From the IMG/VR virus record IMGVR_UViG_2675903578_000013: a DNA stretch of 5,475 bases; one strand, written 5' to 3'. Under the pieces are notes generated by a model. The model was not told the origin of the DNA and searched no databases. It saw only the letters and a program-made list of their open reading frames with translations. The stretch is from a virus (lineage: Duplodnaviria; Heunggongvirae; Uroviricota; Caudoviricetes). How positions within the stretch are numbered: the stretch's first letter is position 1; each line of letters starts with the position of its first letter. Shown piece after piece: positions 320-5,334 of the stretch. The position numbers and the translations under genes were made by a program.

Positions 320-1057
320 TCATTCACTCTCTTTCAAACCAGTTTTAACTGTTTGTGGTTTTGGGTAAGGCTGGACTTTGAATAGCTTTGTGTTAAGGCG
401 TTTTCTGGCTCTCTTGTCCAGAAACCGGATGTAACGAAACTGACGGAATTTATGAACACTGGCTCTGTCGATATTAGCCCGCAGATGTTCACCTCGCTGT
501 CCTCCTCGTTTGATTGCATTCTTGCAAATCTCGTGATACCACTCGCCATCAAGTTCATAGAATGTTGTTTCATGACTGCCTACATAATCAAAATTGCTTG
601 CCTGGTACACGACACCAAGACAGCCACAACGCTCATCTGCAAACGACTGAACCCACTGCACCTGCGGATAAAGTTGTCTGATTAGTTTGAGCGCGTAACT
701 GATTGCCCTTGATTCGGAGTTTCTCGGCATACAGTCATGCAGCCATAACCGGTTAAGCTCCATATATTCGCGGTTCTGCGTGCCAGTTACGACGCGTGCA
801 CCATTGTTTGGATTAAGGGCATAACCCCATTGCATTACGCCAACCAGCTCCCGTTCTGAAAATATGCCCAGATGAAGGTAGGAATTATTTACGAAACGAT
901 GGCTGTAATGTTTATTGACGACGACCAGCCGGGCCAGCCAGCAACTTATTGTCTCAACCCGTAACTCACGGGAGCCATAACCGACGATATTGTCGTTATA
1001 GTGAATAAGTTCAGGCGTGCTGATGATACGGGATGTAACTTGCTTTCTGTTCCCCAC
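320..1057 (-). CDS. mom: Mom-like DNA modification protein (anti-restriction adenine modification)
   Basis: The 310-aa open frame (320..1252) has its 5' end overlapping, in another frame, a gene for a Com-like zinc-finger protein, which is the arrangement of the phage Mu com-mom operon. I cannot reproduce the Mu Mom sequence from memory, so the family call rests mainly on this context. Start is uncertain: I place it at GTG 1057..1055, which has AAGGA about 9 nt upstream and overlaps the com 3' end by about 15 codons. The frame stays open up to GTG 1252 and ATG 1219, but those would overlap all of com. Stop codon TGA at 322..320. Confidence 0.65.
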
Positions 1058-1211
1058 GACAGGATTTCCTTGTGTATGTGGGGTGCTCTGTGGCGCTCTG
1101 AGATGTGATTTGATTGAGGGTTTTACAGCGCGGACATTTAACTTCCAGATAACTGAAGCTGGCTCGTGCCAGTAGCTTGTTACAATGTCGGCACCGTATG
1201 TTTCGATACAT
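1011..1211 (-). CDS. com: Com-like zinc-finger translational activator of mom
   Basis: ATG at 1211..1209 preceded by AGGAGG (1227..1222). The product [30 protein letters not shown]... has two CxxC pairs and closely matches my recollection of Mu Com (MKSIRCKNCNKLLFKADSFDHIEIRCPRCK...). The 66-aa size fits Mu Com at roughly 62 aa. The ORF-track entry (1011..1256) begins at a TTG; the internal ATG is the likely true start. Confidence 0.75.
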
Positions 1212-1300
1212 GGCCGCATAACCTCCTGCTTTGTTGTTGATATCTTTATCACTCAATCGATCGACAAAAACGATCGATTTGATTTATTTAATTGATACAA
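1212..1300 (-). promoter_or_regulatory. putative com/mom promoter and control region with clustered GATC (Dam) sites
   Basis: AT-rich region directly upstream of com. GATC at 1259-1262 and 1272-1275, both inside short palindromes (TCGATCGA, CGATCGAT), and a third at 1341-1344. In Mu, mom transcription depends on Dam methylation of GATC sites upstream of the promoter. I could not place -35/-10 hexamers confidently. Confidence 0.4.
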
Positions 1301-1467: not shown

Positions 1468-1761
1468 ATGGACAATCATGTAACGACGAGAAATCGAAAA
1501 ATGATTGAAAATGCGGAAATCTATAATGATTATTTTTCCGATTATTCAGATGCCTGCAAATACAGTTCGAGTGCGGGAGAGTTCATATGCTTCAACTTTT
1601 TTATTAAATCTTATGTTTTTCCTCCACAGCAAGAAGATGGAGGTGTGCCACCTCCTGAAATCACTTTGCACCGTATAGCCTCCGTCTCAATGATGGAGCA
1701 ACAGGCTAATGAGCTGTATAGCATTCTGGGAACGATTCTACAAAAGCGTGAATCGGACTAA
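1468..1761 (+). CDS. hypothetical protein (97 aa), divergent from com/mom
   Basis: ATG at 1468 preceded by AAGAGG at 5-nt spacing. A 97-codon open frame in AT-rich, stop-prone sequence. No family recognised; the C-terminal half (PPPEITLHRIASVSMMEQQANELYSILGTILQKRESD) looks protein-like. Confidence 0.45.
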   Translation: MDNHVTTRNRKMIENAEIYNDYFSDYSDACKYSSSAGEFICFNFFIKSYVFPPQQEDGGVPPPEITLHRIASVSMMEQQANELYSILGTILQKRESD

Positions 1762-1842
1762 TGATACCGGTTCATTTGCCTGCCCGGATGGGGAAGCAGG
1801 ATTGACTGCTCCATAAGCAGCTATATTTCTGAATACGAAATA

Positions 1843-1871
1843 CTATCCAGCGATTACATATGGCTGGATAG
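1843..1871. other. perfect 9-bp inverted repeat with 11-bp spacer, in a convergent intergenic region (possible terminator or operator)
   Basis: CTATCCAGC (1843-1851) / GCTGGATAG (1863-1871), perfectly complementary. A second hairpin, CAAACCGG (1896-1903) / CCGGTTTG (1916-1923), lies just past the stop of the 84-aa gene. Neither has a strong U-tract. Confidence 0.3.
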
Positions 1872-1928
1872 CGGCAAAGATGTTTTCATTAGTGTCAAAC
1901 CGGCAGAGGACACCACCGGTTTGTATTG

Positions 1929-2183
1929 TTACATCATGGTACTGTCAGTTCCGGGCTGAGCCGGGTCTGGTTGCTCTGGCTGCGCGTCGGTTTTCGGCTC
2001 ATTATCAGCATCACTGGCCGCAACTGCTGGCCCAATAAGTTTTGCCAGCACTTCATCAACGTAAGTGTCGATTTGTGCCTCAAAATCCTTGCGGACCTGC
2101 GCTTTCAGCAACTTATTTACTTCACCGGAATACAGTGCCTGTTTTACCAGGTCTTCAGTGACGGTGCCTTTAATTTCTGGCAT
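1929..2183 (-). CDS. hypothetical small acidic protein (84 aa)
   Basis: ATG at 2183..2181 with a strong AAGGAGG about 6 nt upstream. Product MPEIKGTVTEDLVKQALYSGEV... is strongly acidic with a Pro/Gln/Asp-rich C-terminal tail. It sits 35 bp downstream of the 60-aa gene, so the two are probably co-transcribed. Confidence 0.6.
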   Translation of the reverse strand: MPEIKGTVTEDLVKQALYSGEVNKLLKAQVRKDFEAQIDTYVDEVLAKLIGPAVAASDADNEPKTDAQPEQPDPAQPGTDSTMM

Positions 2184-2218
2184 GTATATCCTCCTTATGC
2201 GGGAATAAAGCCCTGCAA

Positions 2219-2401
2219 TCAGGGCTGGGTCGGGTCTTTTGGGAGCGGAGTTACCTGCGCTGTTTTACTGAGTTTTTCAGCTGCTGCGTCCTCAATTTTG
2301 CGGCGAACATAATTTCTGATGGCCTTATAACCACCACTCACCAGATATAACGCACATACTGCCGTGCAGAAATACAATAAAATAAGCTGTAAAAATGTCA
2401 T
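2219..2401 (-). CDS. hypothetical small membrane protein (60 aa, one predicted N-terminal TM helix)
   Basis: ATG at 2401..2399 with GGGAGGG 3-4 nt upstream. Product MTFLQLILLYFCTAVCALYLVSGGYKAIRNYVRRKIEDAAAEKLSK... has a hydrophobic stretch (residues 3-24) followed by a charged segment. The ORF-track entry (2219..2413) starts at an upstream TTG. Confidence 0.55.
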   Translation of the reverse strand: MTFLQLILLYFCTAVCALYLVSGGYKAIRNYVRRKIEDAAAEKLSKTAQVTPLPKDPTQP

Positions 2402-2497
2402 TATCCCTCCCAATTATTGACATGGTGTTGACACCGGTAATATCTGTTAGGTAAAAAGGTGCACTGCATTTTTTGCTTTGGATATAACGATCTTTTT

Positions 2498-2538
2498 GCC
2501 GCCGGTTTCTTGTTTTCCCTTACCGGCGGCATTTTTTT
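2498..2538 (+). terminator. rho-independent terminator, plus-strand orientation
   Basis: GCCGCCGGT (2498-2506) pairs perfectly with ACCGGCGGC (2522-2530), 15-nt loop, followed by ATTTTTTTAT (2531-2540). On the minus strand the hairpin is followed by AAAAAGA, so it is not a canonical terminator for the large minus-strand ORF that ends at 2546. Confidence 0.6.
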
Positions 2539-2545
2539 ATCCTGC

Positions 2546-3723
2546 TTACGCGTTATTCACTTCCACCACGATACTGTCAATCAGTACCGGGTAAGTCGCA
2601 TTTTTAGTGATATCGGTCACGCGCAACTTGTCTGCCGTAAACGTGCCGACCGGAGACTGCGACAGCATGAATGGTGTCCCGTCCTTACCATCAATGACCG
2701 GCGTCACCTCAATACTGTTGTTACCGGCAAAACGGAAGCCCAGCGTATGCCATTCGTTATTAAATGCGCCGAATGACCCCAGCTTCGTGTTCTGCGCCGT
2801 GTTTCCTTTGTGATACATCACGTTAAGGTCTGTGGCATCGCTCTGTACGTAGAACGATGCCAGCAGGTTATGACCGGCATTTCCTTCCAGAGTAACCCCT
2901 TGCGGCAGGGCAGAAACCGGCCAGTACAGCGCCAGTGCGTACTGATTAGCCGTAAGCGCGCCATCGAGTTTAAAACGACAACTGACAAGACCACCTTTAC
3001 CCAGCAGGTCCGCACCATTACCAGCATCATGCTCAAGGTACCAGGGGGCTCTTCCTGTTTCCTTGGTCAGTTTCATTGCCTTACCCCCGCTGGCTCCGGC
3101 ATCATCCACGATTTGAGCCTTGCCACCTCCGGCAGCCCAACCCTGTGGTGTCAACCGTCCTTCAGACTCAGATGCCCGGTAAGCAAATAGCGTACTCATC
3201 GTCGTGGTGTCTGCGGGTGGCGTGGACGGTTTTGATGGTGTATCAGGTGACGGCTTCTCATCCGGTGGTGTCACGGTCTGCCCACGCATCAGTTCAGCCG
3301 TGCGCCCTGCATGGAGCATAATAGCTGAGGCCAGACGGTCTGAAATGACGCCCCTGCGTGCCCATGAGCTGAAATGGCTGTCACGCTGTGTCGAAACAAA
3401 ACTGCCCTGGGTTCGGGATGCTGCACCGTAATACCCGACAGCCACAATATCCGGGTCTTCCGCCGGAGCATTCGTTGGCGTGCTCTGTCCATTCTCATCC
3501 GTCAGGAACGGTACAAAGAAAATTTTCTGTGCTTCCTTGCCTTTGTAGCCACCGTATACTGCCTCATATTTATCGGTGCCAGCGTTTTTCCAGTAATACG
3601 TGGTATCACCGCAAATCCACGGCACCGTGGTGGCATTTCCACTCACGCACTGCGCAGCAAGCGGAGCCAGGTCAGTTCTGAACTGCTGAACCATGGCCGT
3701 GAATAAACTATTATGCTGCTGGC
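2546..3723 (-). CDS. large hypothetical protein, C-terminal 392 aa; the 5' part is hidden in the N-run
   Basis: Continuous open frame from the N-run edge (3723) to stop TAA at 2548..2546. The translation has a globular region with Cys/His-containing segments (VPWICGDTTYYWKNAG ... HFSSWARRGV ... IMLHAGRTAEL), then a Pro/Thr/Ser-rich linker (TPPDEKPSPDTPSKPSTPPADTTT), then a Gly/Asn/Thr-rich C-terminal domain of about 210 aa. No family recognised by eye. The ORF-track frame reaches 4036 through the N's. Confidence 0.6.
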
Positions 3724-4021
3724 NNNNNNNNNNNNNNNNNNNNNNNNNNNNNNNNNNNNNNNNNNNNNNNNNNNNNNNNNNNNNNNNNNNNNNNNNNNNN
3801 NNNNNNNNNNNNNNNNNNNNNNNNNNNNNNNNNNNNNNNNNNNNNNNNNNNNNNNNNNNNNNNNNNNNNNNNNNNNNNNNNNNNNNNNNNNNNNNNNNNN
3901 NNNNNNNNNNNNNNNNNNNNNNNNNNNNNNNNNNNNNNNNNNNNNNNNNNNNNNNNNNNNNNNNNNNNNNNNNNNNNNNNNNNNNNNNNNNNNNNNNNNN
4001 NNNNNNNNNNNNNNNNNNNNN
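3724..4021. other. run of 298 N (unresolved or masked sequence)
   Basis: Literal N characters in the input. Confidence 0.98.
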
Positions 4022-4676
4022 GCAGTTTTTTGGCAATATGCAACCCCTGACCGACAGTCCCGTACTGGCCTTTTGCCAGATCAGCTTTCGGGTGGTTTAT
4101 CCCGCTCATATCCTGAACATCATGCAGGCAGTGGTCTGCCGGAATGATGTCGTTGTATGTACACGACGTACCGTTGGGCGTTACCGTACTGCGGCGTGCC
4201 AGTTGCTTAATNNNNNNNNNNNNNNNNNNNNNNNNNNNNNNNNNNNNNNNNNNNNNNNNNNNNNNNNNNNNNNNNNNNNNNNNNNNNNNNNNNNNNNNNN
4301 NNNNNNNNNNNNNNNNNNNNNNNNNNNNNNNNNNNNNNNNNNNNNNNNNNNNNNNNNNNNNNNNNNNNNNNNNNNNNNNNNNNNNNNNNNNNNNNNNNNN
4401 NNNNNNNNNNNNNNNNNNNNNNNNNNNNNNNNNNNNNNNNNNNNNNNNNNNNNNNNNNNNNNNNNNNNNNNNNNNNNNNNNGGGATTACCGGATACCGGC
4501 ATTACCCATAATGGCTCTTTCGTGCTGAAGCGGATCACGCAGTCTGCGAAGGTGATCCCCCCTTTATTACCCGAAGGGCGGAAAGGGCTTTCAATAAATG
4601 CCACCGTGCCACCGGCAACCTTGACTGAAAACTCTCCGGGCATGGCGGAGAGCATTTTCCACTTGGAGTCTGACAT
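4022..4676 (-). CDS. hypothetical protein, N-terminal part (a separate upstream gene or the 5' part of the large ORF); interrupted by an N-run
   Basis: ATG at 4676..4674 begins MSDSKWKMLSAMPGEFSVKVAGGTVAFIESPFRPSGNKGGITFADCVIRFSTKEPLWVMPVSGNP (4482-4676). The same frame is open across the 63 codons of real sequence at 4022-4211, on the far side of the 270-nt N-run. After the second N-run this frame stops at 3711-3713 while a different frame is open, so the gene either ends inside 3724-4021 or the gap length is not exact. Weak Shine-Dalgarno. Confidence 0.45.
4212..4481. other. run of 270 N (unresolved or masked sequence)
   Basis: Literal N characters in the input. Confidence 0.98.
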
Positions 4677-4749: not shown

Positions 4750-4781
4750 TTCAAAAAAGCGTCACGGTACTTTTGGTGACG
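4750..4781 (-). terminator. rho-independent terminator of the invertase gene
   Basis: On the minus strand: CGTCAC (4781..4776), 10-nt loop, GTGACG (4765..4760), then CTTTTTTG (4759..4752). The hairpin overlaps the last codons and the stop codon of the invertase gene. Confidence 0.5.
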
Positions 4782-5334
4782 GAGCTGGTGAGGCAGGAAA
4801 ATAACGATAAAGGGTGGAAAGGCCAATATCAAATATCAGTGCGATTTGTTTACGGGACTCGCCATTAGCCAGCAAACGGGCGATTTGCTCCCGCTCTTTC
4901 TCTGTCAGTTTCTGAGGTCTGCCGCCATGACGCCCCTGAGCACGGGCAGCAGCAAGACCCGCGCGTGTACGTTCAATAATGAGTTCCCGCTCCATTTCCG
5001 CCAGCGCGCCCATTATATGGAAAAAGAAACGTCCCATGGGAGTGGATGTATCAATATTGTCCGTAATGCTGCGGAAGTTAACGCCGCGTTGCCGGAGTTC
5101 TTCTGTTAAAAGGACAAGGTGCTGCATACTGCGTCCAAGGCGATCCAGTTTCCAGACCAGCAGGGTATCCCCTGGCCGGAGTCGCTTTAATGCGCGTTTA
5201 AGTCCGGGACGCTCCCTTGTCTTACCGCTTATTCTGTCTTCGAAAAACAGCTCACATCCTGCACATTCCAGCGCATTTCTTTGTAGCGCCGTATTCTGGT
5301 CATTTGTTGACACCCTGATATACCCAATCAGCAT
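4762..5334 (-). CDS. pin: serine site-specific DNA invertase, Gin/Pin/Cin/Hin family
   Basis: 190-aa product MLIGYIRVSTNDQNTALQRNALECAGCELFFEDRISGKTRERPGLKRALKRL...GDTLLVWKLDRLGRSM...MGRFFFHIMGALAEMERELIIERTRAGLAAARAQGR...LSTLYRYF matches my recollection of Gin/Pin along its whole length, including the catalytic-serine N-terminus (RVSTNDQ) and the C-terminal HTH. ATG at 5334..5332 with AAGGAA upstream. The symbol is a family-level guess; it could equally be named gin or cin. Confidence 0.9.
   Translation of the reverse strand: MLIGYIRVSTNDQNTALQRNALECAGCELFFEDRISGKTRERPGLKRALKRLRPGDTLLVWKLDRLGRSMQHLVLLTEELRQRGVNFRSITDNIDTSTPMGRFFFHIMGALAEMERELIIERTRAGLAAARAQGRHGGRPQKLTEKEREQIARLLANGESRKQIALIFDIGLSTLYRYFPASPAPSPKVP

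Follow-up and report, generated by a model that had tools for sequence, protein, structure and literature searches.

Two small prophage genes of families DUF1378 and DUF826 as the distal part of a candidate esterase unit

What are two small genes doing between gin and com/mom at the right end of a Mu-like prophage? We analysed a 5,475-nucleotide stretch of phage DNA (the window; IMG/VR record IMGVR_UViG_2675903578_000013), which is the right end of a Mu-like Escherichia coli prophage and carries at positions 1929–2401 a gene for a 60-residue membrane protein followed by one for an acidic 84-residue protein. An initial annotation of the window had linked this pair to the nearby mom anti-restriction module. 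We find that the two genes almost certainly belong to DUF1378 and DUF826, already catalogued families of unknown function, and their surroundings suggest that they are the last two cistrons of a moron-like unit, mobile by horizontal transfer, that is composed of an esterase gene, an antisense small RNA (sRNA) gene, DUF1378, DUF826 and a terminator.

The two genes and their predicted products

Both open reading frames (ORFs) stand where the initial annotation had placed them, co-oriented and separated by 35 nt (2184–2218), one coding for a 60-residue protein with a single transmembrane (TM) segment and the other for the acidic 84-residue protein. The DUF1378 frame runs on the minus strand from an ATG at 2401 to a TGA stop codon at 2221–2219; an alternative TTG start at 2413, which would give 64 amino acids, was rejected because homologues and the Pfam model begin at MTF, corresponding to the ATG at 2401. 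The DUF826 frame, on the same strand, extends from an ATG at 2183 to a TAA at 1931–1929. The strong ribosome-binding sites described for both genes are also present in the window. GGGAGGG (2405–2411) is separated from the DUF1378 ATG by 3 nt (ATA, 2402–2404), or by 4 nt when counted from its GGAGG core, and AAGGAGG (2190–2196) stands 6 nt before the DUF826 ATG. Such a strong Shine-Dalgarno pair is a trait of the window allele and not of the family, the alleles of Shiga toxin (Stx) phages being weaker.

The 60-residue protein matches Pfam PF07125 (DUF1378) with an E value of 9e-32 and 109.4 bits (cut-off 25), its residues 1–58 aligning to positions 1–58 of the 59-position model, and phrog_494 with an E value of 1.3e-32. 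Its length of about 60 residues, the hydrophobic helix at its N-terminus and its conserved motif LYF(C)T..YL.SGGY are those of that family. The 84-residue protein matches PF05696 (DUF826) over residues 1–57 (E value 6e-16, 58.7 bits, cut-off 25) and phrog_311 over residues 1–83 (E value 4.9e-28). In 14 complete E. coli genomes RefSeq lists proteins 100% identical to ours, under the names "DUF1378 family protein" and "DUF826 domain-containing protein". Outside Escherichia and Shigella the two families are all but absent, apart from a few members in Citrobacter. Compared with the Stx-phage alleles, DUF1378 of the window shows 51–52% identity and DUF826 38–40%. NCBIfam and PADLOC searches with the pair returned noise matches only; no toxin–antitoxin family was matched in Pfam, NCBIfam or PADLOC, and the DUF1378 protein matches no holin family in Pfam.

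DUF1378 and DUF826 are real genes under purifying selection. The median dN/dS of DUF1378 is 0.20 (28 distinct alleles); for DUF826 (31 distinct alleles), the medians are 0.21 for residues 1–52 and 0.55 for the tail. Purifying selection is also found within Mu-type lineages that have no adjacent holin gene, where comparison of the window with loci L022, L023 and L028 gives omega values of 0.15–0.26.

Residues 3–24 form the sole hydrophobic stretch of DUF1378 (19-residue Kyte–Doolittle maximum 2.27) and are directly followed by ten residues that include five lysines or arginines. Since this basic cluster comes after the hydrophobic stretch, the protein is predicted to cross the inner membrane once, with the N-terminus outside and the C-terminus inside. 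Beyond the TM segment lie a predicted basic cytoplasmic helix (pI about 10) and a short proline-rich end; the AlphaFold2 model consists of one helix, residues 3–49, with residues 50–60 disordered. Within the TM segment Tyr10, Phe11, Tyr19, Gly23, Gly24 and Tyr25 are invariant, and Cys12 and Ser22 are conserved at 90% or more, a pattern that suggests a specific partner in the membrane. At the RNA level, a stem-loop spans the DUF1378 stop codon (2209–2226; minimum free energy −17.3 kcal/mol for a 66-nt stretch, z −1.9). It is found in Mu-type alleles only, being kept with changes in the window and L004 types and absent from the Stx types.

DUF826 has a pI of 4.24, a net charge of −8, seven prolines and six glutamines. 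Its earlier description as strongly acidic thus holds for the whole chain, but the excess sits in the tail: residues 1–52 carry a net charge of only −2 and residues 53–84 one of −6. AlphaFold2 predicts helices at residues 10–17 and 20–50 (predicted local distance difference test (pLDDT) >90) and a disordered tail (pLDDT <50). We therefore predict a cytoplasmic protein with a helical N-terminal domain (about residues 1–52) and a disordered acidic tail rich in proline, aspartate and glutamine. This tail ends in a conserved hydrophobic C-terminus (..TDSTMM). It is about 25 residues long in some family members and over 100 in others, and a hydrophobic end (TMM, MMM, TML, MML or LMQQ) is kept even in distant relatives. 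According to the predictions of topology, charge and fold, the soluble parts of DUF1378 and DUF826 are both cytoplasmic and opposite in charge.

Relatives of DUF826 are few, with only 57 in a full HMMER scan of 1.84 billion representative proteins. A tblastn search of phages with DUF826 found only two records, both Mu-like insertions; it is nearly empty because the Stx alleles are too diverged for so short a query. Megablast of window bases 1300–2560 against phages gave no match, and a profile search of genome contigs with the DUF1378 alignment returned 305 pattern stretches, none of which was confirmed. A sequence-profile search of the PDB with the DUF826 alignment gave nothing below an E value of 0.05. 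Foldseek with the DUF826 model against viral structures gave nothing below 3, as expected for a single helix. Entries that looked like natural DUF1378–DUF826 fusions (109–141-residue "long DUF826" proteins and protein P0131) were rejected as frame-shifted or over-extended gene calls. In one protein of 4219 residues (P0256), the DUF826 helical domain is matched in 10 separate stretches (E value 3e-13).

Gene order in Mu-like and lambdoid prophages

We recovered 80 IMG/VR loci with DUF1378, of which 26 are Mu-like and 54 lambdoid, and mapped the reference proteins onto each. Two lambdoid loci lack upstream DNA, leaving 78 that could be scored for order, and all 78 have esterase, DUF1378 and DUF826 in this sequence. 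The initial annotation had made its proposal depend on conservation of the pair in related elements, and this conservation is strong. What lies beyond the three genes differs. The Mu-like loci read gin, esterase, pair, com and mom, and the lambdoid loci read esterase, pair, holin S and lysozyme. Since the order is held in 78 of 78 loci while the downstream neighbours differ, the pair, judged by gene order, moves with the esterase gene and travels neither with mom nor with the holin gene.

The features of the window are as follows.

4762–5334, minus strand: Gin-type serine invertase ("recombinase family protein" in the annotation of L001), upstream neighbour of the esterase unit
2546–4676, minus strand: NanS-p-like sialate O-acetylesterase gene, first gene of the unit, with SASA and C-terminal DUF6645 domains
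2428–2538, plus strand: antisense sRNA-like unit in the spacer that separates the esterase stop codon from the DUF1378 start codon
2405–2411, minus strand: Shine-Dalgarno sequence GGGAGGG of the DUF1378 gene, read from the sequence
2219–2401, minus strand: DUF1378 gene, 60 amino acids plus stop (PF07125, phrog_494)
2209–2226, minus strand: 7-bp stem-loop over the DUF1378 stop codon, AGCCCUG-AUUG-CAGGGCU
2190–2196, minus strand: Shine-Dalgarno sequence AAGGAGG of the DUF826 gene, read from the sequence
1929–2183, minus strand: DUF826 gene, 84 amino acids plus stop (PF05696, phrog_311)
1842–1923, minus strand: two hairpins downstream of the DUF826 stop codon, where transcription of the unit probably ends
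1468–1761, plus strand: opposite-strand ORF of 97 amino acids between DUF826 and com, without family match
320–1256, minus strand: separate downstream unit of com (about 1011–1211) and mom (320–1030) at the prophage right end

The esterase gene of the window is masked with N at 3724–4021 and 4212–4481. Compared with the matching parts of L001, a chromosome that is otherwise identical, these runs have 46 and 30 extra nt, and the esterase frame therefore cannot be traced between 4676 and 2546 in the window. L001 is one of 14 complete E. coli chromosomes that match window bases 1300–2560 at 100% identity; its prophage adjoins rhsC/ybfB and carries Mu-type head, tail and baseplate genes. The intact esterase ORF in L001 encodes 684 residues with matches to PF03629 (SASA; E value 1.5e-13) and PF20350 (DUF6645; E value 7e-68). 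It lacks a DUF1737 domain and has a different N-terminal stretch of about 100 residues instead, which by domain content makes it a NanS-p-type esterase like that of the 933W type, minus the N-terminal DUF1737. Inspection by eye reveals no obvious N-terminal signal peptide. The two genes had initially been described as a two-gene operon; they are indeed a co-oriented pair, but that description missed that they form the tail of a NanS-p-type esterase unit.

Stx-converting phages (933W, VT2-Sakai, ArgO145 and others) carry the same two families in the same order downstream of a NanS-p-type esterase gene, together with the same antisense promoter–terminator unit and the same hairpin after DUF826. 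In lambdoid and Stx phages, the esterase unit has stx (or Q) on one side and the lysis genes on the other. The window, in contrast, is Mu-like, and its unit is flanked by gin upstream and by com/mom downstream, without a holin gene after it; additionally, its esterase is without DUF1737 and its Shine-Dalgarno sequences are stronger. The setting is thus not that of a Q-dependent late operon upstream of holin and endolysin genes.

The triad also occurs in a metagenomic lambdoid contig, a Citrobacter prophage, a Mu-like prophage that lacks gin and has a strongly diverged DUF826, and an Escherichia sp. prophage whose holin belongs to another family (PF16080). Two holin families, PF04971 and PF16080, therefore adjoin the pair. 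Because the pair is under selection in Mu-like prophages without an adjacent holin gene and stands next to two holin families elsewhere, its dependence on a specific holin is unlikely.

Two IMG/VR contigs (L064 and L080) combine a Mu-type gin and an esterase gene of the window type (98–99% identity) with DUF1378, DUF826, holin and lysozyme genes of the Stx type. These are either prophage recombinants through the shared esterase gene or assembly chimeras.

On its downstream side, the pair is separated from com/mom by hairpins and the opposite-strand ORF. Com and Mom are identified by Pfam (Zn_ribbon_Com, E value 1e-12; Mom, E value 2e-77), in agreement with the annotation of L001. The slot between DUF826 and com is variable: the 97-residue opposite-strand ORF is present only in some Mu-like loci, and elsewhere a different same-strand ORF, starting MDKNKKQPDTKGLE, fills it (slot compared in L007, L014 and L022). 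In protein P0064, a DUF826 variant runs after residue 35 into the reading frame that precedes mom (STTKQEVMR...; window 1100–1252), which indicates that in some strain a deletion has removed com and the spacer. Between mom and the host junction (209–275) lie three spaced TTGATAC(C/T) repeats, which may be transposase-binding sites of the prophage right end.

Probable limits of the transcript and a candidate antisense element

Two hairpins follow the DUF826 stop codon (1842–1923; minimum free energy −34 kcal/mol, z −4.6, none of 200 shuffled sequences as stable), with a U-rich run after the second and none after the first. They represent the probable 3' end of the transcription unit. A hairpin stands directly after the DUF826 stop in both the Mu-like and the lambdoid spacers that we read, including the spacer between DUF826 and holin S. 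A T-rich run follows it in most alleles, most clearly in L002, L003, L007 and L033 and weakly in the L035 type. The unit thus has its own terminator at the 3' end, as morons do.

The spacer between the esterase gene and DUF1378 measures 145 nt. On the sense strand it contains a strong hairpin with an A-run before it and no U-run after it. Because this hairpin has no U-run and the spacer no convincing promoter, read-through from the esterase gene into DUF1378–DUF826 is likely. One transcript that covers the esterase gene, DUF1378 and DUF826 and ends at the terminator, that is, a moron-like unit, is the likeliest reading.

On the opposite strand, the same spacer holds a candidate sRNA gene (2428–2538, plus strand). 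A −35 box, TTGACA (2428–2433), is separated by 18 nt from TAAAAA (2452–2457) and followed by a body of about 75 nt, whose terminator has a GC-rich stem (2498–2506 pairing with 2522–2530) and seven T residues (2532–2538) that abut the esterase stop codon. This layout of promoter, body and terminator is present in 34 of 34 distinct spacer variants, though the bodies differ widely, and the terminator stem shows a compensatory change from A-U to G-C. The window element carries near its 5' end the motif CUGCAUUUUUUGC, which several lambdoid variants also have. In the L004 and L019 spacer types, a G-U pair in the stem of the sense RNA corresponds to an A-C mismatch in the antisense RNA; since the pairing exists only in the sense RNA, the hairpin may also matter on the mRNA, for instance as a 3' stabiliser of the esterase message.

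The closest counterparts of the element are PasA and PasC (EcOnc51/52) of enteropathogenic and enterohaemorrhagic E. coli (EPEC and EHEC), two Hfq-dependent sRNAs that were validated in EPEC and are expressed in lysogens (PMC8550237, table S6). They lie between a sialic-acid esterase gene and the holin–lysozyme operon (Zhu, Shabalina, Storz; bioRxiv 10.64898/2026.05.13.724894), and we confirmed their coordinates on the E2348/69 sequence (L089/L090). PasA/PasC and the window element share the position 3' of the esterase gene, the convergent orientation, a similar promoter layout, a size of about 75–85 nt and a terminator that abuts the esterase stop codon. The body of the window element, however, cannot be aligned by eye with PasA or PasC, and whereas PasA/PasC in E2348/69 are followed by a holin gene (prophage PP2) or an insertion sequence (IS) element (PP5), the window element is followed by DUF1378 and DUF826. 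We regard it as a putative sRNA gene and a positional counterpart of PasA/PasC.

Rfam gave a weak Esr41-like match to the element (2458–2540, 22 bits, E value 0.69) that stems largely from the terminator. Esr41 itself was rejected as its identity, given that the gathering score is 102 and that Esr41 is encoded in SpLE1; at the gathering threshold, Esr41 was found in none of 13 related loci. In some lambdoid loci (L002, 2518–2777; L065; L076; L088), Rfam identifies STnc100 and then an antisense AsxR or AgvB anti-sRNA upstream of nanS-p, so that sRNA genes lie on both sides of the esterase gene in these phages.

The promoter of the window element is only 27 nt from the DUF1378 start codon, and any mRNA that reaches the pair from the esterase gene must therefore be complementary to the spacer RNA. 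Regulation of the pair by this antisense RNA is what we infer.

Possible functions of the pair

Our tentative choice, which we hold to be possible and no more probable than that, is that DUF1378 and DUF826 together make up a two-protein module, anchored in the membrane, that acts with the cytoplasmic esterase. DUF1378 would insert into the inner membrane with its N-terminus outside and its basic helix (pI about 10) facing the cytoplasm, where DUF826 would present one long amphipathic helix and a flexible acidic tail. The conserved hydrophobic C-terminus of DUF826 could be a tethered binding peptide or else a degradation tag. Together the two proteins would make a membrane-anchored complex that serves the esterase encoded on the same transcript, either by holding the enzyme at the membrane or by modulating its release, without being strictly required for it, and the spacer antisense RNA would probably uncouple or tune expression of the pair relative to the esterase.

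A more specific version, which we consider improbable, makes the pair an adaptor for membrane anchoring and release of a phage esterase that has no signal peptide: DUF826 would be recruited by DUF1378 through its helical domain and would capture the esterase, possibly via DUF6645, with its tethered C-terminal peptide. If so, the esterase would sit at the inner membrane, acting on membrane-linked acetylated glycans or being released under control, and how much adaptor is made per enzyme would be set by the spacer antisense sRNA.

Several observations weigh against a module that serves the esterase. The esterase gene is found without the pair in EPEC E2348/69, where it is followed by PasA/PasC and then by the holin gene (PP2) or IS element (PP5), and in P2-like prophages; matches over at least 80% of this query occur in 375 of 5426 complete E. 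coli genomes. Among phage records, NanS-p is present in 347 and DUF1378 in 309. Conversely, short DUF826-only homologues (59–61 residues, lacking the acidic tail) occur without DUF1378 or esterase in L097–L100, namely after Rz/Rz1 in satellite-like islands with integrase, AlpA and DUF927 genes and elsewhere just upstream of terminase. In L019–L021, esterase and DUF826 flanks that are otherwise the same enclose exchanged alleles of DUF1378, and tight co-evolution is thus not evident. In the Mu-like context, a scan with the promoter consensus detected no convincing sigma-70 site before either the esterase gene or DUF1378. The only paper found that names the families notes DUF826 and DUF1378 ORFs of unknown function between nanS-p and S in some Stx2a phage genomes (PMC10462455), and under the locus tags ECs1208/9, Z1467 and L0106/7 nothing relevant stood among the papers listed. 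Since the esterase also occurs without the pair, their link could reflect historical co-inheritance and not function. By gene content the link is one-sided, the esterase not strictly requiring the pair.

In the P2-like loci L096 (NZ_CP032201.1) and L094, the DUF6645/SASA esterase gene lies between LysB/LysC and the tail genes R/S, with a 23-nt spacer to the next gene.

The freedom of the esterase from the pair would suit a second explanation, which we think somewhat doubtful, namely that the two proteins are a self-contained membrane-acting pair and that the esterase link is hitch-hiking. DUF1378 would be a holin-like, lysis-timing or toxin protein that is regulated or neutralised in the cytoplasm by DUF826, whose acidic tail would be unstable. 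The architecture has the expected composition, with one small protein that has a single TM segment and a charged end in the cytoplasm and another that is small, acidic, cytoplasmic and partly disordered; in lambdoid phages holin S is the next gene downstream, the DUF826-only homologues lie by Rz/Rz1 or between the lysis cassette and terminase, and the non-polar C-terminus of DUF826 after a polar tail could be a degradation tag. A comparable architecture is known from the T4 antiholins RI and RIII, a membrane-tethered small protein and a small cytoplasmic helical protein that regulate holin T. The likeness is one of general architecture, with no sequence similarity detected. RI has a periplasmic soluble domain, whereas DUF1378 is predicted to have its soluble part in the cytoplasm, and the pair is retained where no holin gene adjoins it. 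The lambdoid loci place an endolysin gene next to DUF1378, a small protein with a TM segment and a charged C-terminus, but the window and the other Mu-like loci do not, and purifying selection acts in these Mu-like prophages with no lysis gene nearby. Moreover, the variable holin family (PF04971 or PF16080) points to no specific partner, a terminator-like hairpin separates the pair from S, and similarity to holin, antiholin or toxin–antitoxin families is lacking. Flanks of the lysis cassette are also general insertion sites for morons, which makes proximity weak evidence.

A third explanation, which we judge doubtful, dispenses with the esterase altogether: the pair would be a lysogenic-conversion or host-modulating module in which DUF1378 modulates a host inner-membrane protein (a transporter, sensor or protease) and DUF826 acts as a cytoplasmic adaptor, resulting in superinfection exclusion or altered physiology. 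The sequence-specific conservation of the TM segment resembles that of small proteins such as AcrZ, MgrB and MgtS, which bind larger membrane proteins. The pair also works in two to three unrelated phage backbones, making a host target likelier than a phage target, and it belongs to a moron-like unit with its own terminator at prophage positions known for morons, where spacer sRNAs are expressed in lysogens (PMC8550237). Nevertheless, the consensus scan identified no promoter for expression in lysogens, PADLOC gave no matches, and this explanation leaves the strict adjacency to the esterase gene unexplained.

The proposal of the initial annotation, that DUF826 is a DNA-mimic anti-restriction protein of the Ocr/ArdA type working with the mom module, can hardly be right: the low pI (4.24, net charge −8) is shared with Ocr and ArdA and the pair lies about 0.7 kb from com/mom in this prophage, but Pfam, PHROG, NCBIfam, PADLOC and PDB reveal no homology to these or other anti-defence proteins, Foldseek against viral structures shows no similarity to known mimics, and the predicted structure offers no rigid, densely acidic folded surface, only one long helix with a net charge of −2 and a disordered tail of variable length that holds the acidity. 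Its genomic and temporal context differs as well. Nearness to mom is incidental, given that 54 of the 80 loci are lambdoid with no mom nearby, the pair belongs to a transcription unit separate from com/mom, the partner of DUF826 is a membrane protein, and a late-operon position just before lysis in lambdoid phages would be too late to protect incoming DNA. Nothing ties the pair to anti-restriction, and that reading is not supported.

The window thus contains an ordinary member of known families of unknown function and not a new anti-restriction system. The analysis defines a unit (esterase, antisense sRNA, DUF1378, DUF826 and terminator) and its mobility across lambdoid and Mu-like backbones. 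Major Stx-converting phages carry DUF1378 and DUF826 between their toxin and esterase genes and their lysis genes, and the mobility with the esterase gene, the terminator-like hairpin before the holin gene and the putative antisense sRNA gene at the 5' edge narrow the hypotheses and make the role of these small Stx-phage genes testable.

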